64,000 bases of DNA, from positions 10,308 to 74,307 of the forward strand of contig JAAETJ010000362.1 in the NCBI GenBank assembly GCA_024228495.1. The letters are read 5' to 3'. The position numbers and the translations under genes were made by a program. Under the pieces are notes generated by a model, which was not told the DNA's origin, searched no databases, and saw only the letters and a list, made by a program, of their open reading frames with translations. This document shows, one piece after another, positions 25,288 through 44,557 of this stretch. Within the stretch, counting starts at the first letter, position 1. Every line of letters starts with the position of its first letter. The DNA is from a bacterium (lineage in GTDB: Bacteria; Pseudomonadota; Alphaproteobacteria; Rhizobiales; JAKIUO01).

Positions 25288-25635
25288 GTGAGCAAAAAAC
25301 CAACAAGCGGTCGGGATCGAGTATCCCGGCTTTTTTTATGGCTGGATGAAAAACTTGAATTTCTCGAGCACCGTCATTTGCAAAGACATGCACCACTCAC
25401 ATCAGCCGAACATGAAAAGGATGCGCGAACGATGATTTCCCTCATCCGGGTCTATGAAAAACTCGTGGAGATGACAGCACGTCTTGATAAAAAAACGCAA
25501 GGCGAAAGCCGGGACGTCAAGGGATATGACTCCGTTGAGACGGAGCAAATGCGCCTTGAGATTGCGCAACGCATTGAGCGCTTGCAACGGCAAAGCGAAG
25601 GGCAATGCGAAACTGCTGGAAAATCTGCGAGATGA
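25288..25635 (+). CDS. Small basic/coiled protein at the g1 position (candidate GTA small terminase)
   Basis: 115 codons with a GTG start, directly upstream of and overlapping the TerL reading frame. Helical, charged sequence. The assignment rests on position only. Confidence 0.45.
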   Translation: MSKKPTSGRDRVSRLFLWLDEKLEFLEHRHLQRHAPLTSAEHEKDARTMISLIRVYEKLVEMTARLDKKTQGESRDVKGYDSVETEQMRLEIAQRIERLQRQSEGQCETAGKSAR

Positions 25636-26878
25636 AGACCTGGTTGAGATTTCTTTTGATTGGCAGCTTTGGGCGCGAGAAGATCAATTGCCGCCTCGCG
25701 GTGACTGGCATACCTGGCTGGTACTTGGGGGCAGGGGCGCTGGTAAAACGCGCACCGGGGCTGAATGGGTGCGTGGCATGGCGCTTGGTCTGCCGGGATT
25801 TTCTGACAGGCCGGTTGAACGTATCGCTCTTGTTGGCGAGACATTGGAAGATGTGCGCTCGGTGATGATTGAAGGGGAGTCTGGCCTGTTGGCCATTCAC
25901 CCGAAAGCGCAGCGCCCGCATTTTGAAATCTCGAAGCGATTGCTCACCTGGCCTAACGGCTCTATCGCGCAAATGTATTCAGGCAACCGGCCCGATGGCT
26001 TGCGCGGCCCCCAGTTTGCAGCCGCCTGGTGCGATGAGTTGTGCAAATGGCGTTATCCGCAAGAGACTTGGGACATGCTGCAATTCACGTTGCGGCTTGG
26101 CGAACAGCCACGCCAGATCGTCACGACAACCCCGCGTCCAATTGCTTTGCTTAAGCAATTGCTCAAAAGCGAGGGGCTACAAATTGATAGCAGTACAACC
26201 AGCATCAACAAGGCCTTTCTGGCAGCAGGTTTTGTAAAACGGATCAATGAGCAATTTGGAGGTACCCGGCTGGGGCGGCAAGAACTGGAGGCACAAATTC
26301 TGGATGATCGGCTTGATGCCTTGTGGCATCGCGGTTCGCTTGATCAGTTGCGGCAAAAAGAGGCGCCAGAGCTTACGCGCATTGTCGTGGCTGTTGACCC
26401 ACCTGTGACCTCGCATGCCAAGTCGGATGCTTGCGGCATCATTGTTGCGGGCCTGTGCAAACAAGGCCGAAGTTATGTGTTGTCAGATGAAACCTTGAGT
26501 AAAGCCTCACCGCTTAAATGGGCACGAGCAGTAGTTAGTGCTTTTCATCATTTTGAAGCCGACCGCATTATCGCCGAGGTCAATCAGGGCGGCGAAATGG
26601 TAGAGGCGGTGATCCGGCAGGTCGATAGATCGGTCGCCATCACATCGGTGCGGGCAACACGCGGAAAATATATCAGAGCGGAACCTGTGGCCGCTCTTTA
26701 CGAACAAGGCCGGGTTCACCATGTGGGCTCCTTGCCTTTATTGGAAGACGAATTGTGCGACTTTGGCCCCGGTGGCCTCACCAATGGCAAAAGTCCCGAC
26801 CGCCTTGATGCGCTGGTCTGGGCTCTTACCTATCTGATGCTTAACAAGGGCGCGGCACCAAGGGTTCGAAGTATATAA
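25484..26878 (+). CDS. Phage/GTA terminase large subunit (RcGTA g2 equivalent)
   Basis: SFDWQLWAREDQLPP...WLVLGGRGAGKTRTGAEWV (Walker A), followed by a nuclease domain. The start is uncertain: homology begins near 25610 and the first ATG in frame is 25526. Confidence 0.9.
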   Translation: MIKKRKAKAGTSRDMTPLRRSKCALRLRNALSACNGKAKGNAKLLENLRDEDLVEISFDWQLWAREDQLPPRGDWHTWLVLGGRGAGKTRTGAEWVRGMALGLPGFSDRPVERIALVGETLEDVRSVMIEGESGLLAIHPKAQRPHFEISKRLLTWPNGSIAQMYSGNRPDGLRGPQFAAAWCDELCKWRYPQETWDMLQFTLRLGEQPRQIVTTTPRPIALLKQLLKSEGLQIDSSTTSINKAFLAAGFVKRINEQFGGTRLGRQELEAQILDDRLDALWHRGSLDQLRQKEAPELTRIVVAVDPPVTSHAKSDACGIIVAGLCKQGRSYVLSDETLSKASPLKWARAVVSAFHHFEADRIIAEVNQGGEMVEAVIRQVDRSVAITSVRATRGKYIRAEPVAALYEQGRVHHVGSLPLLEDELCDFGPGGLTNGKSPDRLDALVWALTYLMLNKGAAPRVRSI

Positions 26879-26944
26879 TGCCCTCGCCGGGCGGACCTCT
26901 TTGCAAAGAGCATTGGGGACTAATCCTCAAACCCTATTTTAAAA

Positions 26945-26982
26945 CAGCTGGCTTCCAAAGGCTAGCGTTTGGAAGCCAGCTG
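26945..26982 (-). terminator. Perfect 15-bp-stem hairpin between convergent terL and metY
   Basis: cagctggcttccaaa-ggctagcg-tttggaagccagctg. On the minus strand it is followed by TTTTAAAA. No T-run follows on the plus strand. Confidence 0.7.
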
Positions 26983-27007
26983 AACAAGCTGCCGCCGCGC
27001 TTTGCGT

Positions 27008-27049
27008 GCCCCATCGGAGGCAGCGCGTAGCGCAATCAGCCGTGAGATC
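27008..27049 (+). repeat. Family-A repeat unit (TCGGAGGC-hairpin-AATnAGCCGTGAGA)
   Basis: catcggaggcagcgcgtagcgcaatcagccgtgagatct, abutting the metY stop codon. Confidence 0.6.
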
Positions 27050-28341
27050 TAGCCAAGAGCCTGATTGAGGTCTTTGGCGATGTCGGTGGCGTCTTCGATG
27101 CCGATGGAGACACGGATCACTTCAGGGCCGGCTCCCGCTTTCACCAGCGCTTCTTCGCTGAGTTGTGAATGGGTGGTGGAGGCCGGGTGAACGATCAAGC
27201 TGCGGGTATCGCCAAGATTTGCCAGATGGGTAAATAGTTTGACGTTATTGACGAGGTTTTTTCCGGCTTCATAGCCGCCTGTCAGTCCAAATGTGAACAC
27301 GGAACCAGCACCTTTGGGGCAATATTTTTTTGCCAGTTCGTGATTGGCGTTGCTTTCGAGACCTGAATAATTGACCCAGGCAATGCGGCTGTCTTTTTCG
27401 AGCCATTTTGCAACGGCCAGAGCATTGTCGCAATGACGTTGCATGCGCAGGGGCAGGGTTTCGATGCCGTTCAATATCAAAAAGGCGTTCATCGGGGCGA
27501 TGCATGGTCCCAGATCGCGCAAGGACAACACGCGGGCGGCGATGGCGAAGGCGATATGGCCGAAGGCTTCGCCAAACACGTCGCCGAGCACCATATTATT
27601 ATAGCTTTCGCAGGGCTGGCTGAGGGTTGGGAATTTGTCGCTGGCCATCCAGTCAAAATTTCCGCCATCGATGAGCATGCCGCCCATGCTATTGCCGTGG
27701 CCACCAAGGAATTTGGTCAGTGAATGAGTGATGATATTGGCGCCATGTTCAAACGGGCGGCACAGATAGGGCGTGGCCATTGTATTGTCGACAACCAGCG
27801 GCACTCCGCCTTTTTCCGCCACTTTTGCAATGGCTTCGATATCGGTAATCAGGCCAGCGGGATTGGCGATCGACTCGATGAATATGGCGCGGGTTTTATC
27901 GCTGACAAGCGCTTCAAAACTTGAGGGATCTTCGGCATCGGCCCATTGAACACCCCAGCCGAATTTTTTGAAGGACTGGGAGAGCTGATTGATGGAGCCG
28001 CCATAGAGCTGACGGGCGGCGATGATTTCATCGCCCGGCTTCATAAGATTGTGAAACACCATTAGTTGCGCGCCATGACCAGAAGCTGCGGCAAGTGCGG
28101 CGGTGCCACCTTCCAGGGCGGCAACGCGTTTTTCGAGAACGTCTTGCGTGGGGTTCATGATGCGCGTGTAGATATTACCAAATTCCTGCAGGCCGAAGAG
28201 GCGGGCGGCATGGTCCGCATCCTGGAATGCATAGGCGGTGGTCTGGTAAATCGGTGTTGCTCTGGCACCCGTTGCTGGATCTGGCGCGGCACCCGCATGA
28301 ATGGCAAGGGTATTGAAAGTCTGGGAGTTCTCGTCTGACAT
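27049..28341 (-). CDS. metY: O-acetylhomoserine sulfhydrylase (PLP-dependent, MetY/Cys-Met metabolism family)
   Basis: FNTLAIHAGAAPDPATGARATPIYQTTAY..., GNIYTRIMNPT, and SLTKFLGGHG (PLP lysine). 430 aa. GAGAGG SD. Confidence 0.9.
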   Translation of the reverse strand: MSDENSQTFNTLAIHAGAAPDPATGARATPIYQTTAYAFQDADHAARLFGLQEFGNIYTRIMNPTQDVLEKRVAALEGGTAALAAASGHGAQLMVFHNLMKPGDEIIAARQLYGGSINQLSQSFKKFGWGVQWADAEDPSSFEALVSDKTRAIFIESIANPAGLITDIEAIAKVAEKGGVPLVVDNTMATPYLCRPFEHGANIITHSLTKFLGGHGNSMGGMLIDGGNFDWMASDKFPTLSQPCESYNNMVLGDVFGEAFGHIAFAIAARVLSLRDLGPCIAPMNAFLILNGIETLPLRMQRHCDNALAVAKWLEKDSRIAWVNYSGLESNANHELAKKYCPKGAGSVFTFGLTGGYEAGKNLVNNVKLFTHLANLGDTRSLIVHPASTTHSQLSEEALVKAGAGPEVIRVSIGIEDATDIAKDLNQALG

Positions 28342-28482
28342 GATGGCCTCTCTTGGTTATTTCTTGTCTGTGTTAATCTGACGCATCTTTCTCGTGAAGG
28401 CAATTATTTTGTCTGCTGCATATCTCTTGCCGGGCAGGCGCCCTTTGTAGGCAACGCCAAGGGTGGGCCTTTGGAAATCATT

Positions 28483-28511
28483 TTTATAGGGGTTTGGAGA
28501 CATGTTCCTAA
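28483..28511 (-). promoter_or_regulatory. Candidate metY promoter
   Basis: On the minus strand, TTAGGA (28511-28506), a 17-nt spacer, then TATAAA (28488-28483). This leaves a leader of about 135 nt. Confidence 0.3.
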
Positions 28512-28585
28512 CGCTGTCCGCGTCGGACGCCTGTTTGGTGAAGACAGGCGCTGCAAGGCGCTCCTCGAACTGGAGATCTATCTAT

Positions 28586-29800
28586 ATGCCGTCTTTTTTG
28601 AGAAATCTGACCCGATTGTGGGAGCAAAAGCAGAGCGCTACGGGCAAGCTGATTGCCATGCAAAGTGCGGGTAATCCTGTTTGGACGCCGCGCGATTATG
28701 AAGCTCTGGCACGAGAAGGGTTTTCACAAAACGCTATATGTTATCGCTGTGTACGCATGATTTCGGAAAGCGCCGCCTCTGTTCCTTTCAATCTTTTGGA
28801 GGGCAAACAGGTGCTTGATGAACATCCTCTTCTCACATTGCTCAAGCGTCCCAATAGTGTGCAATCGGGGCGGGACTTGCTGGAAGACTGGTACGGACAT
28901 TTGATCGTGGCGGGTAATGCCTATTTGGAATCTGTCAGCCATGATGACGAAGTGATCGAGCTGCACGTGTTGCGCCCGGACCGTATGAAGGTGGTGCCTG
29001 GCACTGATGGCTGGCCGGAATTTTATGAGTATGATGTGGCTGGACTACAGATGCGTTTTCATCAAGGCGGAGAGGGGCAAAAACCCATACTGCATATGTC
29101 CTTGTTTAATCCGCTCAATGATCACTACGGTATGAGCCCCATTGAAGCGGCTGCCTTTGGTATTGATATTCATAATGCGGCGGGCAGTTGGAACAAGGCG
29201 CTACTTGATAATGCTGCGCGGCCATCGGGGGCGCTGATTTATGATGCCAGGGACGCAAGCTTAAGCGTCGAGCAGTTTGAGCGCCTCAAGAGCGAGTTAG
29301 AAAGCGCTCATCAAGGCGCGCGTAATGCAGGGCGTCCCTTGTTGCTGGAGGGCGGCCTTGACTGGAAGCCCATGGGTTATTCTCCGCGTGATATGGATTT
29401 CATTGAAGCGAAATGGGTGGCGGCCCGAGAGATCGCGCTTGCCCTTGGCGTACCGCCCATGCTGCTCGGTATTCCTGGCGACAATACATATTCTAATTAT
29501 GCCGAGGCCAATCGCACCTTTTGGCGACAAACGGTGTTGCCGCTGGTCAATCGCACAAGTAGCGCGCTGACCAATTGGCTGGATGAAACTTTTGGCGAGA
29601 GTGTTGTCCTGAAACCGGACCTCAATAATGTTGAGGCATTGGCATCAGAGCGCGAAGCTCGCTGGCAGCGCATCGCCAAGGCCGACTTTTTATCAATCAA
29701 CGAAAAACGTGAAGCACTGGGTTATAGTCCGGTTGAGGATGGAGAGGAGAGGAAATGGGACGATCGCTCAACTGAACTTGACCTGACAGACACCGCCTGA
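28586..29800 (+). CDS. HK97-family phage portal protein (RcGTA g3 equivalent)
   Basis: MPSFLRNL...WTPRDYEALAREGFSQNAICYRCVRMISE. Length is typical (404 aa from Met 28586). The track start at 28502 is an upstream extension. Confidence 0.9.
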   Translation: MPSFLRNLTRLWEQKQSATGKLIAMQSAGNPVWTPRDYEALAREGFSQNAICYRCVRMISESAASVPFNLLEGKQVLDEHPLLTLLKRPNSVQSGRDLLEDWYGHLIVAGNAYLESVSHDDEVIELHVLRPDRMKVVPGTDGWPEFYEYDVAGLQMRFHQGGEGQKPILHMSLFNPLNDHYGMSPIEAAAFGIDIHNAAGSWNKALLDNAARPSGALIYDARDASLSVEQFERLKSELESAHQGARNAGRPLLLEGGLDWKPMGYSPRDMDFIEAKWVAAREIALALGVPPMLLGIPGDNTYSNYAEANRTFWRQTVLPLVNRTSSALTNWLDETFGESVVLKPDLNNVEALASEREARWQRIAKADFLSINEKREALGYSPVEDGEERKWDDRSTELDLTDTA

Positions 29801-29867
29801 AACCCGGTAACTGTCAGATCAGGTCTGAGTTAGTACATCTGAATTAGTACAAATGCTGATGTCGGAT

Positions 29868-30074
29868 TTATTTGTCTTCCAACTGGTCCATGAGTTTTTT
29901 CCAGCTCAGTTTTTTGCCATTCTTTTTTGGCGTCTTTCCTTTGCACCAAACGATGCCGCCTTTGGTGACATGGAAATCACCTTGATGCTTGCCGTCATTA
30001 TCTTTGACGGCAATAGCTATACCTGCGGAGCCAACGTCCTGATTGACGGCAAGGTCTTTGATGTTGAGTTTCAT
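29868..30074 (-). CDS. Orphan 68-aa Lys-rich protein on the opposite strand inside the GTA cluster
   Basis: Codon third positions are GC-biased as in neighbouring genes. Sequence MKLNIKDLAVNQ...HVTKGGIVWCKGKTPKKNGKKLSWKKLMDQLEDK. No family recognised. Confidence 0.5.
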   Translation of the reverse strand: MKLNIKDLAVNQDVGSAGIAIAVKDNDGKHQGDFHVTKGGIVWCKGKTPKKNGKKLSWKKLMDQLEDK

Positions 30075-30317
30075 TTTGAAAGTCCCGTTCTTTTTATGTG
30101 GGTTGTGCGAATCATATCACGTGCACACGCACATTAGAAAAACTGCTCGTGCAAATCAATACAAGCTGACAATACAGCATTACTCCTGTGGATTTTATGG
30201 GCAGTACATCAACCGTTCAAGCAATGGTCGTAGATATATTTATGACCTGAAATGAATTTGATTTGAACTATTCAACTCGAAAACTTTTTTAACTTCCTCA
30301 AAGAGTATTGGAAAACC

Positions 30318-31007
30318 ATGAACCTGTCTGACCAACAATCTGAGTGTGAACGAAAGTTTGCGCCTCTTGATTTTAAAGGCATTAATGAGGACGGCAGCTT
30401 TGAAGGTTATGCCAGCCTGTTTGGAAAAAAGGATATAAGCGGCGATATCGTTGCACGAGGAGCCTTTGCTTCAAGCCTTCAAAAACGAGGGCCGAGCGGT
30501 ATTCGTATGCTGTACCAACACGACCCGAGTGAGCCCATCGGCGTGTGGAGAGATGTTATTGAGGATGCGTGCGGTTTGTTTGTGCGCGGCCAACTATTGT
30601 CACAAGTTGCCAAGTCGCGAGAGATATTGGCGCTGATGCGCGAGGGTGCGCTAGATGGTTTGTCGATCGGCTTTCGCACGGTGCGTGGCAAGTCCGACCG
30701 CAACAGCGGGACACGCCGATTGTTGGAGGTGGATTTGTGGGAGATCTCCATTGTGACTTTCCCGATGTTGCAACAAGCAAGGATCAGCAGCGTTAAAAGC
30801 AGTGCCTTGCCAACCATGAGAGAATTTGAGCGCTGGCTCGTGCGGGATGCCGGGTTTACGCGCTCCAATGCCAGGGCGGTGATCTGCTCTGGATTTAAAA
30901 ACCTAGCCAGCAAGCGAGACGCCGCCGGTGAGGGAAGTGAGCTGTTGGCCGACGCTATGCGCAGGGCAGCTGGAATGATGAAAAGGAAATATAATGATAG
31001 AATATGA
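30318..31007 (+). CDS. HK97-family prohead protease (RcGTA g4 equivalent)
   Basis: FEGYASLFGKKDISGDIVARGAF...MLYQHDPSEPIGVW. Overlaps the capsid gene start. Confidence 0.9.
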   Translation: MNLSDQQSECERKFAPLDFKGINEDGSFEGYASLFGKKDISGDIVARGAFASSLQKRGPSGIRMLYQHDPSEPIGVWRDVIEDACGLFVRGQLLSQVAKSREILALMREGALDGLSIGFRTVRGKSDRNSGTRRLLEVDLWEISIVTFPMLQQARISSVKSSALPTMREFERWLVRDAGFTRSNARAVICSGFKNLASKRDAAGEGSELLADAMRRAAGMMKRKYNDRI

Positions 31008-32211: not shown

Positions 32212-32228
32212 TATATCTCTCATTAGAT

Positions 32229-32333
32229 ATATCTCACGGCTATTTTGACGTTGTAGCGTCAAGCCTCCGATGGGGCCGCGCATTACGTGCCAGTCGGAGG
32301 CCCGGCTTTAGCCGGAATAACCGTGAGACATAT
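32229..32333. repeat. Family-A composite palindromic element (two inverted units, about 105 bp)
   Basis: The sequence is ATATCTCACGGCTATT-(GACGttgtagCGTC)-aaGCCTCCGA...TCGGAGGC-(CCGGCtttaGCCGG)-AATAACCGTGAGACATAT. The ends are inverted copies of each other. Confidence 0.75.
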
Positions 32334-32805
32334 CAAGCAACGAATTGCTCGCTTGCGAGCAATGAGGGGAAGCGGGGGTGTTTCCTCCCTGCCATCTTCG
32401 CTTCCCAGTTTTAACTTCACTTGTAATCTTCGTACTCCCAGGCATAAATTTACGGAGTTTGTCAACGCAATGATCTCGACTGTTTCGCGAGCAGCCGCTG
32501 ACGATACTATTGAGATGTTCCTCGAGCGCTGCAAAGGAATAGTCATCAAACCATTGGGTAATTGCCTTGTCGTTTTGAGAACGTTGCACATGATTTTGAT
32601 TACGAGCGGCAATGAGTAATTGGAAATCATTGCCGCTCTTATGACCACGACAACCGATTGTCAAAGTCAGCTGAAAGAACACGTTTTTGAGATTGGCTGG
32701 TGTCCAGTTGCAGATATCATCAATTTCGCTGGAATTCATGCTTTTGAGTTTCAGTTTGCAGAGAGTTGAAAATATTGCGGTTCGTTTTGACGTGGATTTT
32801 TGCAT
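32308..32805 (-). CDS. Orphan 165-codon ORF on the opposite strand between capsid and adaptor genes
   Basis: It is the longest ORF in a 691-bp gap. Its last 8 codons are read out of the family-A repeat. It contains GHKSGNDFQLLIAARNQNH, a faint resemblance to HNH_3-type motifs. The SD is weak and coding status is uncertain. Confidence 0.35.
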   Translation of the reverse strand: MQKSTSKRTAIFSTLCKLKLKSMNSSEIDDICNWTPANLKNVFFQLTLTIGCRGHKSGNDFQLLIAARNQNHVQRSQNDKAITQWFDDYSFAALEEHLNSIVSGCSRNSRDHCVDKLRKFMPGSTKITSEVKTGKRRWQGGNTPASPHCSQASNSLLDMSHGYSG

Positions 32806-33809: not shown

Positions 33810-34202
33810 ATGAAAACGTCCAGAGAATTATCTCCAGATTCGTTCGAAAATGACTTGGTGAAACAATTTGAGCACATTTCATTTGATCACGAATTGCGCT
33901 TGATTGCCGAGCGATTACGCGAGTTGGCAAAGCAAGAACTCAAGGATGGTGGTGATATATGTCTGAGAAAACAAAAGCTTGTTGACTCGATCCGCGTCGT
34001 TTCCGGGGCGCGAAAAGACCAATATCTGGTCGTTAGCTCGAGAGATTATGGCAAAGATTTGGAATTTGGTGCGAGGAATTCCCTTGAAAAGCCTTGGTTC
34101 ATCCCTGCTTTCGTCACGGTCGCAGGATCAATTGATAAGTGTCTTCAAGGGGCACTCAAGCGAGCACTCCTGAAGGCGAGAAGGCTTCATATTCGCATGT
34201 GA
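33810..34202 (+). CDS. HK97 gp10-family neck/tail-completion protein (extra relative to the RcGTA gene set)
   Basis: LVDSIRVVSG...YLVVSSRDYGKDLEFGARNSLEKPWFIPAF fits the gp10-family pattern (..Si.v....EFGt....PF..PA). By eye it is AT-richer than its neighbours. Confidence 0.6.
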   Translation: MKTSRELSPDSFENDLVKQFEHISFDHELRLIAERLRELAKQELKDGGDICLRKQKLVDSIRVVSGARKDQYLVVSSRDYGKDLEFGARNSLEKPWFIPAFVTVAGSIDKCLQGALKRALLKARRLHIRM

Positions 34203-34770: not shown

Positions 34771-34777
34771 GTTTTGT

Positions 34778-34806
34778 GAGTTTAAGAGTTTGTTTGCGCG
34801 TTATTT
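34778..34806 (+). repeat. Right copy of short motifs flanking g8 (GAGTTTAAGAGTTTGTT + GCGTTATTT)
   Basis: See 34309-34334. Confidence 0.5.
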
Positions 34807-35027
34807 TTCGAATACGCCCCACGCGAAAAGTTAGTATTTTGATCCGGGCCAGTTCTTCATGTTCGTTCCAGATGGCAAGATGAAGGCCTTGGTGATCTGG
34901 TAGCGTGTTGTGCCAAGTAAGAGTGCTAAGTAGTTGCAGTATGTAGTCGCGTTAAGTTCTCGAAAAACTTTATTTTACTTCTCGCACATTGGGGATAAAA
35001 ATATCGAGTGTATCAAAGTCTTGCGTA

Positions 35028-35058
35028 TTGACTAAACGAGGTATTGATCTTGTATATG
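35028..35058 (+). promoter_or_regulatory. Candidate promoter inside the g8-g9 gap
   Basis: TTGACT (35028-35033), a 17-nt spacer, then TGTATAT (35051-35057). Confidence 0.3.
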
Positions 35059-35062
35059 GGTA

Positions 35063-35125
35063 AAATCAACCCGGTTTTTGAGCAGAGTTGTGAAACGGTC
35101 CCTCAGTCAGGGACCGTTTTTTATT
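35063..35125 (+). ncRNA. Candidate short transcript (about 60 nt) ending at the intrinsic terminator
   Basis: Bounded by the promoter-like motif upstream and the terminator at 35093-35125. No ORF with an SD lies inside. Purely predictive. Confidence 0.2.
35093..35125 (+). terminator. Strong Rho-independent terminator between g8 and the tail-tube gene
   Basis: aaacggtccct-cagtc-agggaccgttt has an 11-bp stem. It is followed by TTTTTTATTTTT. Confidence 0.85.
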
Positions 35126-35134
35126 TTTGAAAAA

Positions 35135-35203
35135 CCTCTGAGCAAGGGCGACAGCCTGCCCTCGCGGAGGCCCAGCGGCAGGTGCAATAGCCGTGAGCGA
35201 TAT
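35135..35203 (+). repeat. Family-A repeat unit
   Basis: cctctgagc...ctcgcggaggcccagcggcaggtgcaatagccgtgagcgatat. Confidence 0.6.
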
Positions 35204-35259
35204 TTTTTTAATAGGGTCCCTTTGGGGGCTCTTTTTGTTTTTATAAAAGGAGAGCCGTC

Positions 35260-35673: not shown

Positions 35674-35674
35674 T

Positions 35675-35762
35675 ATATTTAGCTGCTATTCCGCCTAACG
35701 CCAGGCCTCCGTTGTGGCACGCCATGGCACCACGGCCAGTCGGCCTTGCCGACGAGTACATA
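35675..35762. repeat. Family-A composite element, degenerate copy
   Basis: The sequence is atatttagctgctatt...aggcctccgttgtggcacgcc...gccagtcggcc...gagtacata. It is colinear with 32229-32333 but carries substitutions and a 3-nt deletion. Confidence 0.55.
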
Positions 35763-35837
35763 GGTGTTATTTTTCCATTCCATGATTTTGTTGCGGGAAA
35801 AGGAAGCTGTAGGTGTACTCACCAGGGCAAGCGTGAC

Positions 35838-35900
35838 CACGTGCCGAGATTTGCTAGCCCGTCGGAGGCCGCGCGAATGTGCGAATAGCCGCGAGACATA
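35838..35900 (+). repeat. Family-A repeat unit with centre segment
   Basis: cacgtgccgag...cccgtcggaggccgcgcgaatgtgcgaatagccgcgagacata. It covers the ATG at 35879 offered by the ORF track. Confidence 0.6.
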
Positions 35901-37708: not shown

Positions 37709-37716
37709 AAAAAAGT

Positions 37717-37767
37717 CCCCTCACCCCAGCCCTCTCCACCCTTGGGGAGGGGGTTAGGTTCAGGGGG
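37717..37767 (+). repeat. Family-B REP-like element (CCCCTCACCCCAGCCCTCTCC + hairpin)
   Basis: cccctcaccccagccctctccacccttggggagggggttaggttcaggggg, in the g12|g13 spacer. Confidence 0.7.
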
Positions 37768-37785
37768 TTGAAGGAAAGCAACACC

Positions 37786-38685
37786 ATGAAGCAATTACCT
37801 CAAGGCATGCAGGCGCATCTTGATAGCGGCGCGACAACCCTGTGCTGGTGTTGGCGTCTGACCCTCATTGATGAGACCGCCTATGGGTTTACCAGTCACG
37901 ACCGCAACTTGACATTTGACAACACGCAGTTCGAAGCCGCTAGCGGGTTCTCCGCTAGTGAGCTATCAGCCGGGGTCGGCCTGTCGACAGATAATCTGGA
38001 AGCTGAGGGGGCTTTGTCGTCGGATAGACTCAATGAGGACGAGCTGGCGCAAGGGCGCTTTGATGATGCACAGGTGGAGATTTTTCGAGTCAACTGGGCA
38101 GACCCGGCGCAGCGCGTGCTCATGAGTTCTGGAAGCCTGGGCGAGGTCAAACGTGGTGAAAATAGTTTTAGCGCGGAGGTACGCGGGCTTTCCCATTATC
38201 TGCAACAACCCAAAGGGCGGTTGGTGCAATATGGCTGTGATGCAGCCCTTGGCGATACGCGTTGTACGCTTGATGTGAGCGCGAGTAGCTCTTTTCGTGT
38301 CAGCGGAGCGGTCACCAATGTGCAATCTAAACATGCTTTTACGGTCACTGGTCTGGAGGGATTCGTGTCCGGCTGGTTCGCGCGCGGCAATTTGATCTGG
38401 CAAACCGGTTCCAATGCGCCGGGCCGCATGGAGATCAAGCAGCACCGGGTCCTTGAAAATGGCGATATATTTATTGAGCTGTGGCAGGACATGGCATTTG
38501 CTATCACGTCGGGGGAGACGTTTGATGCAGTCGCTGGATGTGACAAACAGTTTTCGACTTGCCGGGATAAATTTACCAATCACATCAATTTTAGAGGCTT
38601 TCCCCATGTGCCCGGCAATGATTTCATCATCTCCTATCCGGGCCGCGATGATGCCAACAATGATGGCCAGAGTTTCAGTCAGTAA
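37786..38685 (+). CDS. DUF2163-family tail hub protein (RcGTA g13 equivalent)
   Basis: MKQLPQGMQAHLDSGATTLCWCWRLTLIDETAYGFTSHDRNLTFD. The track start (TTG 37768) lies inside the repeat. Confidence 0.85.
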   Translation: MKQLPQGMQAHLDSGATTLCWCWRLTLIDETAYGFTSHDRNLTFDNTQFEAASGFSASELSAGVGLSTDNLEAEGALSSDRLNEDELAQGRFDDAQVEIFRVNWADPAQRVLMSSGSLGEVKRGENSFSAEVRGLSHYLQQPKGRLVQYGCDAALGDTRCTLDVSASSSFRVSGAVTNVQSKHAFTVTGLEGFVSGWFARGNLIWQTGSNAPGRMEIKQHRVLENGDIFIELWQDMAFAITSGETFDAVAGCDKQFSTCRDKFTNHINFRGFPHVPGNDFIISYPGRDDANNDGQSFSQ

Positions 38686-38696
38686 GAGTTCAAACA

Positions 38697-39134
38697 ATGA
38701 GTATTACACGTCAAAAAATTATCACTGTGGCGCGAAGTTGGCTCGGCACGCCCTATCATCATCAGGCCAGCGTCAAAGGCATTGGTACTGATTGCCTTGG
38801 ACTCGTGCGCGGCGTGTATCGTGAAATATATGGCCATGAAGCCGAAGCGCTTCCTGCCTATACTCCCGACTGGGCGGAAGCCAGCGGTATCGAGACCATG
38901 CTGAAAGCGGCGACCAGACATCTTGATCGGCGCTTGCTTGAGACAATGGCACTGGGGGATGTGATCATTTTCCGCCTGCGTCCCAGTATGGTTGCCAAAC
39001 ATGCAGCCATTGTTGTCGAGCCGCAAAAAATGATCCATGCCATCGAAGGTGCGCCGGTCAGCGAAGTTGTTTTGTCAAGCTGGTGGCATCGGCATATAGC
39101 GGGCGTATTTTCTTTTCCGGGCATTGAACAATAG
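38697..39134 (+). CDS. NlpC/P60-family cell-wall peptidase (RcGTA g14 equivalent)
   Basis: WLGTPYHHQASVKGIGTDCLGLVRGVY (catalytic Cys context), followed by H..IV. Confidence 0.9.
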   Translation: MSITRQKIITVARSWLGTPYHHQASVKGIGTDCLGLVRGVYREIYGHEAEALPAYTPDWAEASGIETMLKAATRHLDRRLLETMALGDVIIFRLRPSMVAKHAAIVVEPQKMIHAIEGAPVSEVVLSSWWHRHIAGVFSFPGIEQ

Positions 39135-39163
39135 TTAGAGGCTTTTAATAACAAAACCACTTA

Positions 39164-39200
39164 CCCCCTCTCCCACGGGGAGAGGGCTGGGGTGAGGGGG
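39164..39200 (-). repeat. Family-B REP-like element, inverted relative to 37717-37767
   Basis: The sequence is ccccctctcccacggggagagggctggggtgaggggg. It has a perfect 9-bp hairpin (CCCTCTCCC-acg-GGGAGAGGG). Its reverse complement shares CCCCTCACCCCAGCCCTCTCC with the first copy. Confidence 0.75.
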
Positions 39201-39239
39201 CCGATCGCGCTGTTCTGCACAAATGTAAAGGATTTTTTC

Positions 39240-42200
39240 ATGGCAACCCTTGTTTTAGCAACGGCTGGCGCGGCGGTTGGCGGCGCTCTTTTGCCTGCTG
39301 GTGTTGGCCTGCTTGGGGCGACCCTTTCAGGTGCTGTTATTGGTCGCGCCATTGGTTCGGTGGCCGGGCGCTATATTGATCAAGCCTTGTTTGGGGCGAG
39401 CGGTCAGAATAAAATCGTTGAAAATACAGGGGCACGGCTAGCGGATTTGCAGGTAACCACTTCTTCTGAAGGGTCGCCCATTCCGCGTATTTTTGGGCGT
39501 GCGCGGCTTGGCGGGCAGATCATCTGGGCGACGCGCTTTGAAGAAGACCTTATTCGTGACAGCAAGACTGCCAAACCATCCAGCAAGGGTATTGGCGATG
39601 GGCCAAGCCAGACCACAATTACCACCGGCTATCAATATTACGCCAATTTCGCGATTGCCCTTTGTGAAGGCAAGATATCGCGATTGGGACGCGTCTGGGC
39701 TGATGGTAAAGAGATCAATCTTGCACAATATACCTATCGGCTTTATCGCGGCGATGAGTCGCAATTGCCTGACAGTTTGCTGGAAGCCAAGGAGGGTGCG
39801 AGCAATGCGCCGGCTTATCGCGGCCTCGCCTATATCGTTTTTGAACGCCTGCCACTGGAGCTATTTGGCAATCGTATTCCCCAGTTCAATTTTGAAGTGT
39901 TCAAGGCGCTCGACGATGTGGAACAAAAGATTACAGCTGTGACCATGATCCCGGCAACGGGAGAATTTGCCTATGAGGTGGAGCCGGTAGAACGCGATGC
40001 CGGAAAAGGGGAGACCATATCTGAAAATACCCATCATCAGATGGGTGGCACTGATTGGTCATTGTCGATGGATCAGTTGCGTGACATGATGCCAAATTGT
40101 GGCTCGGTGTCACTTTTCGTGAGCTGGTTTGGAACGGATCTGCGTGCGGGTCAGTGTCTGGTCAAACCCGGTATCGAAAGCCGTCAGAAAATCACCACGC
40201 CCTATAGCTGGAAAACAGCAGGCCTGACGCGCTCAAATGCTTATGAAATATCAAGCATTGACGAGCGGCCCGTATTTGGTGGTACGCCTAGTGATCGCTC
40301 GGTGATCGCCGCGATCAGTGATCTCAAGGCGCGCGGTATGAGTGTCAGCTTTAATCCGTTTTTACTGCTCGATATTCAGGGCGACAATGTGCTGAGCGAT
40401 CCTTATAGCGGTTCCTATCAGCCAGCTTTTCCGTGGCGCGGACGCATCACTTGCGATCCAGCCCCAGGGCAAGTGGGAAGCCCCGACAAAAGCGCGGCTG
40501 CTGGTACTCAGCTCGACAGTTTTATTGGCACCTGCACGGTTGCAGATTTCGATATTTCCGATGGCGAGGTGGTTTATAGAGGCCCAAATGAGTGGGGCTG
40601 GCGGCGCATGATCTTGCATTATGCGCATCTGTGCAAGCTAGCGGGGGGGGTCGATGCGTTTCTGCTTGGTTCTGAACTGCGTGGTCTAACGCAAGTTCGC
40701 GAAGGTGCTTCATCCTATCCCTTTGTCAGCGCTCTCGTTCAATTGGCAGCTGATGTCAAAGCCGTGCTTGGCACCACCACCAAGGTGAGTTATGCCGCTG
40801 ACTGGTCAGAATATTATGGTCATCAGCCAACGGATGGCAGCAATGATGTATTTTTTCATCTCGACCCGCTGTGGTCGAGCAATGATATCGACATGATCGC
40901 CATGGATTGCTATTGGCCACTGGCGGATTGGCGCGATGAGGACACTCATCTGGATGCAGGCAATGGCATTTTATCCACTTATGATCCGTCCTATCTCAAA
41001 GGAAATATTGCTGGCGGCGAGGGCTATGACTGGTATTACGCCACGCAAGCTGATCGCGATGCCCAAACCCGCTCGACAATTAGCGATGGTGGGGGCAAGC
41101 CCTGGATATTTCGTTACAAGGATATCGCCAACTGGTGGGGGCAACCACATTTTGATCGCCCCGGCGGTGTTGAAGTAGCGAGCGCAACAAATTGGGTGCC
41201 ACAATCAAAACCGTTTTGGCTGATGGAAGTGGGCTGTCCCGCCATAGACAAGGGCGCCAATGAACCCAATGTGTTTTACGATGGCAAAAGTTCTGAAAGC
41301 CGCTTCCCCCATTATTCAAATGGTACCAGAGATGACACCATGCAGCGGCGTTATCTGCAAAGTTTTTACGAATATTATGACGAGGCGCATGAGGATTTTG
41401 ACGAGAGCGATAATCCTCAATCCTCTGTTTACACCGGTCGTATGGTCGATGTGGCAAAAATTCACGCCTATACGTGGGATGCGCGCGCCTTTCCCGCGTT
41501 CCCGTTTGATCGCGAGGCATGGTCGGATGGCGAAAACTGGTTTTTGGGACATTGGCTGAATGGGCGCATGGCGGGTGGTCCCTTGCAGGCGGTGGTTGAG
41601 GGGATCTTGCGCGAATATGGGTTTGATCGCTATGATCTGACGCCGCTCGATGGCATGATGGAGGGCTATATCCTCGATAGCGTGATGTCAGCGCGGGACG
41701 CGTTACAGCCTCTTGAAATGGCGTTTTTTCTTGACAGTTTTGAAAGTGGTGGTGCCATTCGTTTTTCCCATAAGGGGCAAAACGGTGTCAGCTTGTCATT
41801 GGCGTGCTCACAACTGGTAGAGTCCAGTGAAAATGCCGATCTTTATACACTGACGAGATCGCAAGAAACGGACCTGCCACTATCGGCCAAGCTCACCTAT
41901 ATCGATGGCGTGGCCGATTATCGCCAAGCCGTTGTCGAGGCGCGCAGAGATAATGTCGCCACAAATCGTATCGCAACCGCGCAGCTTCCCATTGTGCTTG
42001 GTCAAGAACAGGCGCAGGGCATTGCTGATAGCTGGCTGCACGATGTGTGGAGCGGGCGCGAAAAAGCAAGTTTTGCGCTGCCTCCCTCCAATCTGGCAGT
42101 GGAGCCGGGGGATGTGGTCCGCCTTGCGATCAAGGACCGGGAAATGGATCTGCGTGTGTCGCAAACAGCGACCGGGGACGCGCGATCCATCGAAAGCCTG

Positions 42201-43214
42201 TCCCTGCAGCCGCATATTTATAAAATGCCGGTGGCGCCAAGCCGTGTCGGCATTTCATCTGGTAGCAAGATCTTTGGCCCGTCCGTGTCGGTGTTTATGG
42301 ATTTGCCTTTGTTGCGCGGCGATGAAGTGGCCTCAAATGGTTATGTAGTGGGCTATCAGTCGCCATGGCCGGGAGCGGTCAGTTTTTTCTCGTCGCCAAC
42401 AGGTAGCGGTTATGCATTGGCTGCCAGCGCCAATCTTCTAGCACTTATGGGTGAGACCGTAAGTGTACTGGCAACTGGCCCGGCCTCTCGTTGGGATTGG
42501 GGAACGAGCGTTGATGTGATGATCTATAGCGGCGAGCTGTTGTCACGAGAGGGCGAGGATGTGTTATCGGGGGCCAATCTTGCTGCCGTTGAACATGCCA
42601 GTGGCGAGTGGGAAGTCATGCAGTTTCAAAGCGCGCAACTGATTGGCGACAAGACTTATCGCTTGAGCGGTTTGTTGCGTGGTCAGGCGGGCACGGAGCC
42701 ACATATAAGCGGCGATCTCCCGGTGGGGGCGCGTTTTGTCATTCTTGATGATGCTTTGACACCGGTTGAGCTGACGCAGGATCAAATCGGGCTCGATTAT
42801 AGCTGGAAGGTTGGACCCGCTCCCTATGATCTGGGACACCGATCCTATCGGAGTTATCAAAAGAGTTTTGCTGGTCTTGGCCTCAAACCCTTTGCCCCTG
42901 TACATTTGCAAGCTGTGGTAGATGCAGGGGGAGATATTGTCATCAGTTGGATCAGGCGCACCAGATCTGGCGGCGATAGCTGGGGATCAACCGAAGTGCC
43001 ACTTTTCGAAGATAGCGAAGCCTATGAAGTGGATATATTAGATACCGGCAATGTGGTGCGCACCTTGGCCAGTGCCAGCAGCTCGACCCTCTATAGCAAT
43101 GCTCAACAAATAACAGATTTTGGCCAGTCGAAAACGGCGCTTGATATTGCGGTCTATCAAATGAGCGCTTGCACCGGGCGTGGACATCAAGCTCTTGCGA
43201 TGCTCACATTATAA
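39240..43214 (+). CDS. Large multidomain baseplate/host-specificity protein with TIM-barrel-like glycoside-hydrolase domain (RcGTA g15 equivalent)
   Basis: 1324 aa from ATG 39240 (MATLVLATAGAAVGGALLP...), N-terminal Gly/Ala-rich segment, and g15-like size and position. The track start at 39192 lies in the repeat. Confidence 0.9.
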   Translation: MATLVLATAGAAVGGALLPAGVGLLGATLSGAVIGRAIGSVAGRYIDQALFGASGQNKIVENTGARLADLQVTTSSEGSPIPRIFGRARLGGQIIWATRFEEDLIRDSKTAKPSSKGIGDGPSQTTITTGYQYYANFAIALCEGKISRLGRVWADGKEINLAQYTYRLYRGDESQLPDSLLEAKEGASNAPAYRGLAYIVFERLPLELFGNRIPQFNFEVFKALDDVEQKITAVTMIPATGEFAYEVEPVERDAGKGETISENTHHQMGGTDWSLSMDQLRDMMPNCGSVSLFVSWFGTDLRAGQCLVKPGIESRQKITTPYSWKTAGLTRSNAYEISSIDERPVFGGTPSDRSVIAAISDLKARGMSVSFNPFLLLDIQGDNVLSDPYSGSYQPAFPWRGRITCDPAPGQVGSPDKSAAAGTQLDSFIGTCTVADFDISDGEVVYRGPNEWGWRRMILHYAHLCKLAGGVDAFLLGSELRGLTQVREGASSYPFVSALVQLAADVKAVLGTTTKVSYAADWSEYYGHQPTDGSNDVFFHLDPLWSSNDIDMIAMDCYWPLADWRDEDTHLDAGNGILSTYDPSYLKGNIAGGEGYDWYYATQADRDAQTRSTISDGGGKPWIFRYKDIANWWGQPHFDRPGGVEVASATNWVPQSKPFWLMEVGCPAIDKGANEPNVFYDGKSSESRFPHYSNGTRDDTMQRRYLQSFYEYYDEAHEDFDESDNPQSSVYTGRMVDVAKIHAYTWDARAFPAFPFDREAWSDGENWFLGHWLNGRMAGGPLQAVVEGILREYGFDRYDLTPLDGMMEGYILDSVMSARDALQPLEMAFFLDSFESGGAIRFSHKGQNGVSLSLACSQLVESSENADLYTLTRSQETDLPLSAKLTYIDGVADYRQAVVEARRDNVATNRIATAQLPIVLGQEQAQGIADSWLHDVWSGREKASFALPPSNLAVEPGDVVRLAIKDREMDLRVSQTATGDARSIESLSLQPHIYKMPVAPSRVGISSGSKIFGPSVSVFMDLPLLRGDEVASNGYVVGYQSPWPGAVSFFSSPTGSGYALAASANLLALMGETVSVLATGPASRWDWGTSVDVMIYSGELLSREGEDVLSGANLAAVEHASGEWEVMQFQSAQLIGDKTYRLSGLLRGQAGTEPHISGDLPVGARFVILDDALTPVELTQDQIGLDYSWKVGPAPYDLGHRSYRSYQKSFAGLGLKPFAPVHLQAVVDAGGDIVISWIRRTRSGGDSWGSTEVPLFEDSEAYEVDILDTGNVVRTLASASSSTLYSNAQQITDFGQSKTALDIAVYQMSACTGRGHQALAMLTL

Positions 43215-43224
43215 TCTCGACGAA

Positions 43225-43422
43225 ATGGAAAATATGAACAACTTTCTCACACCCCAGGAACAAGATGCGATCATTGCCGGGGGGTTGATCAGCTCTCCTG
43301 CCTGGGCCGGTTGGCTTGCCGATTTCAATCTGGTTTTGACGACGATTACATTGTTGCTGGGGGCTGTACTTGGTGCCACAAGGCTTTGGCGTGCATATGT
43401 GCGGCGCAAACCATTCGACTAA
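43225..43422 (+). CDS. Holin-like small membrane protein (65 aa)
   Basis: Two hydrophobic segments (AIIAGGLISSPAWAGWLA; FNLVLTTITLLLGAVLGATRLW) and a basic C-terminal tail (RAYVRRKPFD). It starts 10 nt after the g15 stop. The call is based on topology only. Confidence 0.5.
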   Translation: MENMNNFLTPQEQDAIIAGGLISSPAWAGWLADFNLVLTTITLLLGAVLGATRLWRAYVRRKPFD

Positions 43423-43452
43423 CGTCAACCAAATTAAACATCATTTTTTTAC

Positions 43453-43473
43453 ACGCCCTTTTGGCGTTTTTTT
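43453..43473 (+). terminator. Weak hairpin + T7 run between the holin-like and endolysin genes
   Basis: acgcc-ctttt-ggcgt followed by ttttttt. The stem is only 5 bp. Confidence 0.3.
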
Positions 43474-43492
43474 GTGCGAAAAGGATTAGCCT

Positions 43493-44557
43493 TTGCGAAA
43501 GCCGGTTTTATTGACTTATGCACAGCTGCGAAAGCTTGCTCCTCGCGGCAAACGAGAAATTCTGGAAAGGATCGCCGCCCATTCATCTATTTTGGGGGCG
43601 TATGGTCTGGCCGTCAATAAATTGCGTTTGTGCCATTTTCTGGCTCAGGCAGCTCATGAGACGGCGGGTTTTCGTACGCTGGTTGAATATGGCAGTACCC
43701 GCTATTTCCGGCGCCGTTACGGTCACCGGCGCGATCTTGGCAATGTCAGATTGTCGGACGGGTCGAGATATCGGGGCAGGGGGATTTTCCAACTGACTGG
43801 GCGTGCCAATTACCGCCGTTACGGGCAGCTTCTTGATGTTGACTTGGAAGCTTCTCCTTTACTAGCTAAAAAACCAGAGCTGTCGCTGCGTATCGCTTGC
43901 GAATATTGGCAGCGCCATGATCTGAACCGTTTTGCGGACCGTAATGATATTCGCGCCATCACCAAACGCATTAATGGCGGTTATAATGGCCTGCAGGACC
44001 GGCGACGCTTTTTGCAGCATGCCATGTTGATCTGGATGCCGGGCAGGAAGCCTTTGTCAGATCAGCGCATCTTGCAATTCGGCGATCATGGCAAACAAGT
44101 CGCGCGCCTGCAATCGCTATTGCGCGCAACGGGGCGGATCATCGCTGTTGATGGTCTGTTTGGCTATCAGACGTTGCGGGTGCTGAAAAATTTCCAATCA
44201 AGGAATCGCTTGCGAGCGGATGGACTATATGGACCGCTATCAAGGCAGGTGCTTGCTCGTGTCAGCCCGCAATCCAGCAAGCCAAAATCTAATAATTATC
44301 CTTTCCGCCAACCAACCAAACGTAAGGAAACGAAAATGGATCAATGGAAAAGTTATCTTTCAAGTCGGACAATTTGGGCCAACCTGATCGGTTTTGGCGC
44401 TCTGGCACTCGATATTCTCGGGTTTAACGGGTTTAGTTCCGAGGACAAGTCGCAACTTGTCGACCAGGTGCTAAAATTGGTGGAAGCTGGCGGATTTATC
44501 GCTGGCGTTATTTTTAGAGCTCTTGCCCGCAGTCGGCTTGGGCCTCGCTTGTTTTAG
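43493..44557 (+). CDS. GH19-family endolysin with peptidoglycan-binding domain and C-terminal two-TM tail
   Basis: FLAQAAHETAGF, YRGRGIFQLTGRANY and INGGYNGLQDR (GH19 core). GDHGKQVARLQSLL...DGLFGYQTLRVLKNFQ (PG_binding_1-like). TTG start with AAGGA 7 nt upstream. Confidence 0.85.
   Translation: MRKPVLLTYAQLRKLAPRGKREILERIAAHSSILGAYGLAVNKLRLCHFLAQAAHETAGFRTLVEYGSTRYFRRRYGHRRDLGNVRLSDGSRYRGRGIFQLTGRANYRRYGQLLDVDLEASPLLAKKPELSLRIACEYWQRHDLNRFADRNDIRAITKRINGGYNGLQDRRRFLQHAMLIWMPGRKPLSDQRILQFGDHGKQVARLQSLLRATGRIIAVDGLFGYQTLRVLKNFQSRNRLRADGLYGPLSRQVLARVSPQSSKPKSNNYPFRQPTKRKETKMDQWKSYLSSRTIWANLIGFGALALDILGFNGFSSEDKSQLVDQVLKLVEAGGFIAGVIFRALARSRLGPRLF
44336..44557 (+). CDS. Possible nested in-frame ORF: 73-aa two-TM protein at the 3' end of the endolysin gene
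   Basis: Internal ATG 44336 is preceded by AAGGA with a 7-nt spacer. The product is MDQWKSYLSSRTIWANLIGFGALALDILGF...GGFIAGVIFRALARSRL. Confidence 0.3.
   Translation: MDQWKSYLSSRTIWANLIGFGALALDILGFNGFSSEDKSQLVDQVLKLVEAGGFIAGVIFRALARSRLGPRLF

Follow-up and report, generated by a model that had tools for sequence, protein, structure and literature searches.

The usual picture of a gene transfer agent (GTA) cluster is that of a domesticated phage genome, compact and arranged as a single operon. Here, we describe a GTA cluster of the type known from Rhodobacter capsulatus (RcGTA) in which other genes, repeats, and terminators lie between the structural genes. The cluster occupies part of a 64-kb stretch of DNA (hereafter, the window, or W) from an uncultured marine lineage of Hyphomicrobiales (NCBI metagenome-assembled genome (MAG) locus tag GY927), and its nearest relatives are uncultured marine Hyphomicrobiales MAGs. 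The best-supported model for this intact, old, and interrupted cluster is transcription from a single conserved promoter with read-through of the terminators, a reading that we consider fairly probable.

The closest described systems are RcGTA and the ‘large clusters’ of Shakya et al. (2017; PMC5721377). These contain the same colinear gene set as the window, including the GTA-specific genes g12 to g15 and what appears to be the short tape measure protein (TMP), and they likewise lack integrase and replication genes, have stable chromosomal flanks, and are under purifying selection. Relative to RcGTA, however, the terL-to-g15 span is longer in the window (17.7 kb versus a typical ~13.8–14.2 kb, as seen in the 80 loci described below), three minus-strand genes lie inside the cluster, an extra gene, putatively of the HK97 gp10 family, lies between g7 and g8, tandem terminators precede the tail tube gene, and a membrane open reading frame (ORF) and a GH19 hydrolase gene follow g15.

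The GTA of Caulobacter crescentus (CcGTA) provides a second point of comparison. Tran and Le (2024; PMC11150451) showed that the Caulobacter RcGTA-type cluster contains an internal, repeat-formed terminator that is bypassed by GafZ-mediated processive anti-termination. The single promoter of that cluster carries the GafZ-binding element, a near-perfect palindrome, between its −35 and −10 hexamers. A 2025 preprint on the Bartonella GTA (10.1101/2024.11.20.624540) proposed anti-termination as a general feature of alphaproteobacterial GTAs. The cluster in the window resembles CcGTA in having a single promoter with a palindrome between −35 and −10, a long leader, and a terminator within the cluster that needs to be bypassed (repeat-containing in Caulobacter). 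The two differ in the sequence of the palindrome (ACAGCGT-C-ACGCTGT in the window, GCGCCCG-CTGGCGC in Caulobacter) and in their terminators, which in the window are classical intrinsic hairpins in g1 and before the tube gene, whereas that of Caulobacter follows the first gene. Opposite-strand genes lie inside the window cluster, whereas none are reported inside CcGTA in the text consulted. A preliminary description of the window had called a regulatory architecture built on antitermination or internal promoters undescribed for RcGTA-type clusters; given the Caulobacter work, that statement is outdated.

Gene content, junctions, and age of the cluster

Relatives were drawn from 80 loci that represent the best tube-protein matches in one scan of species-representative genomes, with ±10 kb available at each locus, and window proteins were compared to them by tblastn. 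Ratios of nonsynonymous to synonymous substitution rates (dN/dS) were calculated by the Nei-Gojobori method for window genes versus four of these loci (L001–L004). The RcGTA-type cluster is complete from g1 to the g15 ‘megatron’ (25288-43214, + strand) and free of internal stops, as shown by the ORF listing and by Pfam and NCBIfam matches. Family scans recovered all head-tail homologs from g2 to g15 on one strand and in canonical order, among them the GTA-specific distal-tail genes (DUF2460, DUF2163/BR0599, NlpC/P60, and megatron). The complete, single-stranded set of intact ORFs reported in the preliminary description is thereby borne out. The core genes are:

25288..25635, + strand, g1-like ORF with a GTG start and an AAGGA Shine-Dalgarno sequence (dN/dS 0.17-0.18)
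25484-26878 (ORF coordinates), + strand, TerL (g2), Terminase_6N/6C (dN/dS 0.13-0.14)
28502-29800, + strand, portal (g3), Phage_portal 1.4e-88 (dN/dS 0.05-0.06)
30318-31007, + strand, prohead protease (g4), Peptidase_S78
30994-32211, + strand, major capsid protein (g5), Phage_capsid 1.5e-89 (dN/dS 0.05-0.07)
32903-33481, + strand, adaptor (g6), Phage_connect_1
33478-33807, + strand, stopper or head-completion protein (g7), Phage_HCP
34357-34770, + strand, tail terminator (g8), DUF3168 / Tail_completion_gp17, PF11367 4.2e-34; start inferred from relatives
35260-35673, + strand, tail tube (g9), Phage_tail_2 2.5e-45 (dN/dS 0.03-0.05)
35918-36286, + strand, tail assembly chaperone g10, Phage_TAC_11
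36325-36513, + strand, tail assembly chaperone g10.1, Phage_TAC_6
36506-37066, + strand, TMP of 186 aa; top NCBIfam match RcGTA_tape at 157.9 bits, under the cut-off of 220
37070-37708, + strand, g12, DUF2460
37768-38685, + strand, g13 (hub), Gp84_N + BR0599
38697-39134, + strand, g14, NlpC/P60
39240-43214, + strand, g15 megatron of 1324 aa; NF048004 GTA_megatron, 1737 bits versus a cut-off of 800

The genes g12, g13, and g14 have dN/dS values of 0.03-0.12, and the g15 product carries GTA_TIM, Phage-tail_3, and Rcc01698_C domains. No family in Pfam, NCBIfam, or PHROGs matched the g1-like ORF, which is likely the small-terminase equivalent; homologs lie upstream of terL in L001, L002, L005, L008, L013, L019, L025, L037, and L040. 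The true start of TerL is probably downstream of the listed ORF start.

Six junctions were initially described as interrupted, and all were recovered at the sizes given. The terL/portal junction (1623 bp) holds a minus-strand metY gene; the portal/protease junction measures 517 bp; the capsid/adaptor junction (691 bp) holds a palindromic element and a minus-strand gene of 165 codons; the g7/g8 junction holds an extra gene of 130 aa (x130) and a 154-bp gap; the g8/tube junction (489 bp) holds two terminators; and the tube/g10 junction measures 244 bp. What did not stand is the treatment of the gp10-like gene x130 at the g7/g8 junction as a break, since it is colinear structural content (see below). 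The inserted genes and the spacers beside them are:

26945..26982, unstranded, palindromic hairpin between the convergent terL and metY; 19-nt arms, 95% complementary, with 15 contiguous pairs
27049..28341, - strand, metY, O-acetylhomoserine aminocarboxypropyltransferase; NF004650 equivalog, 767.7 bits versus a cut-off of 667 (dN/dS 0.05)
29868..30074, - strand, orf68, lysine-rich small protein of 68 codons (dN/dS 0.07-0.19)
30075..30317, unstranded, AT-rich divergent spacer of 243 bp between orf68 and the protease gene
32308..32805, - strand, Imm8-family orphan immunity gene of 165 codons, accessory cargo; PF15586 4.1e-11

Four of the loci, L001–L004, have the architecture of the window, with DNA identities to it of ~84% (L001 and L003), 80% (L002), and ~70% (L004). 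Further contigs of the clade are L085, L090, L092, L093, and L094. Since the same layout recurs in independent assemblies (L001–L004, L085, L090, L092, and L093), mis-assembly is ruled out. Each of the five genomes that span the relevant junctions (W, L001, L002, L090, and L092) contains both the metY and the orf68 block, with metY at an identical position and on the same strand in the four relatives. Likewise, x130 is present in 9/9 clade members, and the long g8/tube spacer with its terminators in each of the eight members covering that junction. The inserts differ in age: the Imm8 gene is intact in the window only, with C-terminal remnants in L001, L002, L085, and L090; the repeat in the g14/g15 spacer is shared with L001; and the repeat in the g12/g13 spacer and a solo repeat at 35165 are specific to the window.

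These comparisons bear on whether the cluster is simply decaying, i.e., whether it is a dying GTA or prophage remnant in which lesions in the ORFs have yet to accumulate. Approximately 3.9 kb (22%) of the 17.9 kb from g1 to g15 consists of non-GTA sequence, and the cluster continues to acquire mobile repeats, as the window-specific copies in the g12/g13 spacer and at 35165 indicate; both observations are compatible with decay. However, the 15 canonical genes and g1 have dN/dS values of 0.03-0.21 versus L001–L004, over dS values of 0.1-1.6 versus L001–L003 (~0.5-1.1 for most genes) and beyond, dS versus L004 being largely saturated. The few apparent stops flagged by our script are at ORF ends only, and the genes are intact in the relatives except L092. 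That contig (ENA ERZ25073254) derives from long reads at 2× coverage, and its terL, metY, protease, and g7 genes appear frameshifted; the split matches are most likely sequencing errors rather than pseudogenes. Moreover, the inserts are old and shared among relatives, and the chromosomal ycgN flank is conserved across the order. Shared inserts combined with low dN/dS refute a recent onset of decay, which the preliminary description had allowed, and indicate that the interrupted layout is long-lived; its inference that the intact ORFs argue for continued selection agrees with these dN/dS values. We thus consider plain decay very improbable. Collectively, the comparisons indicate that the cluster is a stable variant and not a decaying one, and that it has the appearance of a functional, vertically inherited RcGTA-type GTA that would be expected to produce particles.

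Promoter, terminators, and probable read-through

The signals that bear on transcription of the cluster are:

25065..25094, + strand, GTA promoter-like site, TTGACA-GCGTCACGCTGTTTGTG-TAGGTT, directly after the ycgN-like gene
25309..25337, + strand, terminator-like hairpin inside codons 8-17 of g1; 9-bp stem and T7 run
34771..35135, + strand, clade-specific, conserved, GT-rich noncoding module of ~365 nt that ends in terminator 1
35092-35120, + strand, terminator 1; 12-bp stem
35213..35232, + strand, terminator 2; stem end 27 nt before the tube ATG

The palindrome in the promoter-like site is perfect (7-1-7, ACAGCGT-C-ACGCTGT), overlaps the end of the −35 hexamer, and fills most of the spacer to the −10 hexamer. 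The site is near-identical in L002, and the motif TTGACAsCGtgaCGsTg-N5-GTAGGT was detected in 20 loci from a diverse set of Hyphomicrobiales, with a single + strand copy in each (alongside the window, these are L002, L005, L008–L010, L013, L016, L020, L021, L027, L031, L040, L047, L051, L056, and L062–L066). Its distance upstream of terL is 350-720 nt in the 19 loci with a terL match (all but L020), and only one off-target was found in the 2.7 Mb scanned. In the window, the full motif occurs only at 25065, and neither it nor the palindrome has further copies above chance. These observations make the conserved motif a candidate site at which an activator or anti-terminator could be loaded.

The hairpin inside g1 is conserved in three species (the window, L001, and L002) and is missing from distant g1 homologs. 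As a separate observation, dS of g1 is lower than that of neighboring genes. Before the tube gene, the structure of terminator 2 is kept by compensatory changes across the eight genomes that cover the junction, including L001, L002, L004, L092, and L093. Across these genomes, the tube start codon follows the end of the T-run by ~15-20 nt and the stem by ~20-27 nt, and the ribosome-binding site occupies this interval. Because terminator 2 is this close to the tube start, no promoter fits between them, and any promoter for the tube gene must read through both terminators. As the preliminary description had argued, a cluster with internal terminators and minus-strand genes can be transcribed in full only by read-through or from additional promoters.

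Where extra promoters might lie was evaluated with a σ70-type scan, which returned no + strand site directly upstream of the portal, protease, adaptor, g8, tube, or g10 genes, and a total at the level of chance (15 found versus 17.7 expected). In the 243-bp spacer upstream of the protease gene, the sole promoter-like match is on the minus strand (30220→30192).

Taken together, these results are most consistent with a model in which transcription would start at the single conserved GTA promoter upstream of g1. A GafA/GafYZ-type activator would make RNA polymerase terminator-resistant, by analogy with the Caulobacter cluster, such that the polymerase would pass the g1 hairpin, the antisense metY, orf68, and imm8 genes, the repeat hairpins, and the tandem terminators before the tube gene. 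Because a terminator-resistant polymerase would ignore terminators, insertions into spacers would be near-neutral and would accumulate over long time. Over a long period, the operon has gained metY, orf68, the Imm8 gene, the mobile repeats, and the noncoding module, while all of its structural genes stayed intact under purifying selection. Some inserts, notably the g1 hairpin and the tandem terminators, may later have been kept as locks against leaky expression. The gene content, the insertions and their age, purifying selection, the lone conserved promoter motif, and the conserved terminators that leave no space for a promoter before the tube gene are direct observations, whereas read-through by anti-termination, the nature of its activator, the making of particles, and the function of each insert are inferences.

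Several points weigh against this model. The 64-kb window is all of this genome that the analysis covered, and a scan of 29 flanking ORFs, which stopped ~10 kb short of its upstream end and ~4.5 kb short of its downstream end, brought up no GafA/GafYZ candidate. Although the promoter palindrome has the placement and form of the Caulobacter element, its sequence is different. Internal promoters of an unusual kind could have escaped the promoter scan, which considered σ70-type consensus sites only; the well-conserved spacers upstream of the protease (243 bp) and portal genes could hold + strand promoters, and a conserved TTGACT in the g8/tube module could be the −35 of an internal promoter upstream of the terminators. 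Antisense reading through 1.3 kb of expressed metY would result in head-on conflicts.

Some of the same observations favor a modular arrangement, in which the blocks g1–terL, portal, protease–capsid, adaptor–g8, and tube–g15 would each have a promoter under a shared activator and the internal terminators would be true ends. Minus-strand genes and strong + strand terminators lie between the blocks, and conservation extends to the divergent spacers in front of portal and protease and to the TTGACT inside the g8/tube module. In addition, Caulobacter GafY activates ~18 separate promoters of accessory GTA genes (PMC11150451). Yet the window holds a single copy of the conserved GTA promoter motif, a result that also argues against the multiple internal promoters proposed in the preliminary description, and no σ70-like + strand site is directly before any block. 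The spacer upstream of the adaptor gene is only 97 bp, with its promoter-like matches on the minus strand, and in eight genomes the tube promoter would have to sit upstream of both terminators, so that read-through is needed anyway. We therefore consider the modular arrangement possible but unlikely, and we retain the single promoter with read-through as the preferred model.

The noncoding module between g8 and the tube gene raises a further alternative, in which it would act as a cis-acting regulatory RNA, or as an independent small RNA (sRNA) gene, that gates the tail genes and thereby provides a head-then-tail checkpoint that RcGTA lacks. The module, which is longer in relatives (430-510 nt) than in the window (~365 nt), is noncoding and conserved in eight genomes, down to L004 and L093 (~70% overall DNA identity), and nhmmer matches to it are confined to the clade; other loci, the compact relatives, have only ~50 bp at this junction. 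Small ORFs within the module were considered and rejected, as no reading frame is conserved among relatives. GCGT[T/A] motifs form a strand-specific array (3-11 on the + strand versus 0-1 on the minus strand), an internal hairpin (34832-34886) has some compensatory changes, and terminator 1 combines an invariant loop, CUCAGUCAG, with a covarying stem. Against this stand the small covariation term of the hairpin (−1.8 kcal/mol, from few sequences) and the Rfam search, which returned nothing at gathering score in the whole window and, at 34700-35300, only sub-threshold matches driven by the terminators. The conservation may also reflect DNA-level sites or limited divergence in a young clade. A regulatory RNA, an array of protein-binding sites, and an sRNA gene are all candidate identities for the module. 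That it gates the tail genes is doubtful on present evidence, and we hold a comparably low expectation that it is an undescribed cis-acting RNA, be it an attenuator that binds protein or an anti-termination RNA of the put or EAR kind. On either side of g8 lie similar GT-rich strings, GAGTTTGTAAGTTTGTT and GAGTTTAAGAGTTTGTTTG (window 34310-34355 and 34771-34800).

Inserted genes, repeats, and flanks

Within the portal/protease junction, the minus frame of orf68 is conserved (93% identity in L001 and 50% in L002) while the overlapping plus frame breaks, which indicates that orf68 is genuinely coded on the minus strand. It occupies the position of RcGTA g3.5, but on the opposite strand. A + strand ORF of 94 codons (29853-30137) was evaluated as a g3.5 equivalent and rejected, as the plus frame is broken in L001 and L002. 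Only five homolog clusters of orf68 were identified, all restricted to the clade. The alignment of this junction, orf68 included, has a mean column identity of 81% (W, L001, and L002), and the spacer holds long conserved blocks. Searches of PHROGs and NCBIfam returned nothing for orf68 or the Imm8 protein. Imm8 proteins are immunity proteins of polymorphic-toxin systems, and the 3' end of the window gene overlaps the right terminal repeat of one of the mobile elements described below. The spacer that bears the terL/metY hairpin (window 26880-26996) is inverted relative to L001 (1857-1969) and L002 (2030-2140). A sulfur amino-acid theme was considered for metY, together with cysE, which adjoins RcGTA, and a PALP enzyme inside the L007 cluster; it was rejected because the L007 enzyme is a threonine dehydratase.

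The remaining gene in a junction, x130, is the following:

33810..34202, + strand, x130 of 130 aa, putative divergent member of the HK97 gp10 family, neck or tail-completion-like, at the slot canonical for siphophages

It starts 3 nt past g7, and its 14 known homologs are confined to the clade of the window; homologs were nonetheless assigned to the same g7/g8 slot in four other lineages (L007, L050, L028, and L011). A profile of x130 homologs matched PDB 9mu2_P (“HK97 gp10 family phage protein”) at E 0.023 over nearly the full length, with the LEFGTR…P[WF] motif aligned. The match of window x130 to PF04883 (HK97-gp10_like) has an E-value of 0.042, and 7/14 homologs match (best 0.0026), all under the gathering score. 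PHROGs and NCBIfam yielded nothing for x130. Because its AlphaFold model (predicted local distance difference test, pLDDT, 55) was too poor for fold comparison, membership in the family is tentative. The dN/dS of x130 is ~0.4-0.5, above that of neighboring genes. Its occurrence in the same slot in four other lineages indicates that x130 is not an interruption but phage-derived, colinear structural content that most RcGTA-type clusters lack.

Two kinds of repeat lie in the junctions and spacers, resembling miniature inverted-repeat transposable elements (MITEs) and repetitive extragenic palindromic (REP) sequences:

27014..27050, + strand, MITE-like terminal repeat, degenerate fragment
32226..32334, unstranded, MITE-like palindromic element, 109-bp short variant, 14 bp after the capsid stop codon
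35165..35203, + strand, solo MITE-like terminal repeat between the two terminators before the tube gene, window-specific
35674..35900, unstranded, full-length MITE-like element of ~225 bp, directly after the tube stop codon
37717..37737, - strand, REP-like element in the g12/g13 spacer, window-specific; relatives are without a g12/g13 spacer
39179..39199, + strand, REP-like element in the g14/g15 spacer, with an exact 21-mer copy at the same place in L001

The palindrome at the capsid/adaptor junction is thus present beside the 165-codon minus-strand gene as first described, albeit at 109 rather than 105 bp, and it is predicted to fold with a ΔG of −60.3 kcal/mol (z −6.6). The ‘two repeat copies’ reported in the 244 bp between tube and g10 are the two terminal inverted repeats of one ~225-bp MITE-like element. 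The REP-like hairpins noted in the g12/g13 and g14/g15 spacers were both recovered and are exact inverted copies of each other.

MITE-like copies differ between species. A metagenome scan with the terminal-repeat pattern returned nine contigs, comprising seven with the element in unrelated intergenic contexts, one clade GTA cluster, and one chance in-gene match. The presence of the element in seven non-GTA contigs indicates that the MITE-like family is genome-wide, and the repeats are generic mobile elements rather than GTA-specific signals. Every repeat copy in the window falls inside the cluster. As in known REP/MITE repeats (e.g., E. coli REP), the elements are palindromic (~110-225 bp), have terminal inverted repeats, and are dispersed intergenically, often at gene 3' ends; the sequence family, however, is specific to this lineage. 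In L001, MITE-like elements abut both the capsid and the tube stop codons (7026-7045 and 10212-10231) through an identical junction sequence, TAATATATCTCACGG. The repetition of this junction points to a target preference or to selection favoring 3' hairpins downstream of the two structural genes of highest abundance, and the repeats may have a role in stabilizing capsid or tube mRNA.

Upstream, the cluster is flanked by genes for a PBP1A-type synthase, DUF1214/DUF1254 proteins, and a YcgN-family protein, the last being a flank common to at least 12 other loci. Downstream are a two-component system, ccm genes, dnaX, and recR. In keeping with the housekeeping flanks first described, no integrase, repressor, or replication-initiator family was detected among the 29 larger flanking ORFs, a scan that covered the window from ~10.5 to ~59.4 kb. 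An OmpR-type regulator (46614-47291) was considered as CtrA and rejected (175.9 versus a CtrA cut-off of 350). The features directly after g15 are:

43234..43422, + strand, single-pass membrane ORF of 62 aa, kept directly after g15 in L001–L004, L007, and L037
43453-43467, + strand, terminator between the membrane ORF and the GH19 gene
43493..44557, + strand, GH19 + PG_binding_1 peptidoglycan hydrolase; phrog_181 endolysin 4.7e-54 (dN/dS 0.10-0.15)

The GH19 + PG_binding_1 gene is syntenic in L001–L004, and a small ORF homologous to the C-terminal ~80 aa of its product lies immediately after g15 in the distant loci L031, L054, and L080. In L054, a GH19-like segment also lies between terL and portal. 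The region had been drawn to 44557 without these genes being counted as part of the cluster; the membrane ORF and the hydrolase gene appear to belong to the GTA system, which would extend past g15, and they probably provide its lysis or cell-wall functions. The 62-aa ORF may be a holin-like or accessory GTA gene.

Interruption in other clusters and its significance

The interrupted architecture is not unique to the window. Outside its clade, 11 of 47 other complete Hyphomicrobiales clusters have an insert of at least 700 bp between adjacent core genes, with the portal/protease junction being an insertion hot spot. Examples are:

L054, g8/tube, - strand, MFS transporter
L041, portal/protease, - strand, HipA
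L023, portal/protease, + strand, TPR protein
L056 and L075, capsid/adaptor, - strand, trypsin-like protease
L007, g14/g15, + strand, threonine dehydratase

L007 (Methyloligellaceae), L054 (Rhizobium sp. LCM 4573), L056, L075, and L041 likewise have unrelated genes, often on the minus strand, between core genes that are still detectable across the cluster by tblastn. The trypsin-like protease genes of L056 (7835-8572) and L075 (7851-8591) lie at the same junction and on the same strand in two different genomes. In a strict scan (stem ≥8 bp, ≥4 G-C pairs, and ≥6 T in 8 nt), strong intergenic + strand terminators were identified in 11/49 clusters, mostly just after the capsid gene. The 80-locus sample is biased to close relatives of the query. 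Compared to the other interrupted Hyphomicrobiales clusters, which differ in inserted genes and junctions, the clade of the window is affected at the largest number of junctions and is the only one with the conserved g8/tube module. We found no description of such inserts in the literature; the words ‘interrupt’ and ‘inserted’ are not used in Shakya et al. (2017; PMC5721377).

For annotation, GTA finders that assume tight gene spacing may split or miss clusters of this kind. Two concrete elements are gained from the analysis, namely a palindrome-bearing promoter motif for Hyphomicrobiales GTAs and a noncoding module with tandem terminators directly before the tube gene. If the module does act as a regulatory RNA, it would give the clade a head-then-tail checkpoint that is missing in RcGTA and CcGTA. 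More broadly, this locus and the survey of 80 related loci show that mobile repeats, strong terminators, and foreign genes, some of them encoded on the other strand, are frequently tolerated in the GTA operon of Hyphomicrobiales, and that in the clade of the window such inserts have been tolerated for long periods without loss of structural genes. Tolerated inserts are what processive anti-termination as a general mode of GTA transcription would predict, and since they match this expectation, the insertions provide natural test cases for that idea.

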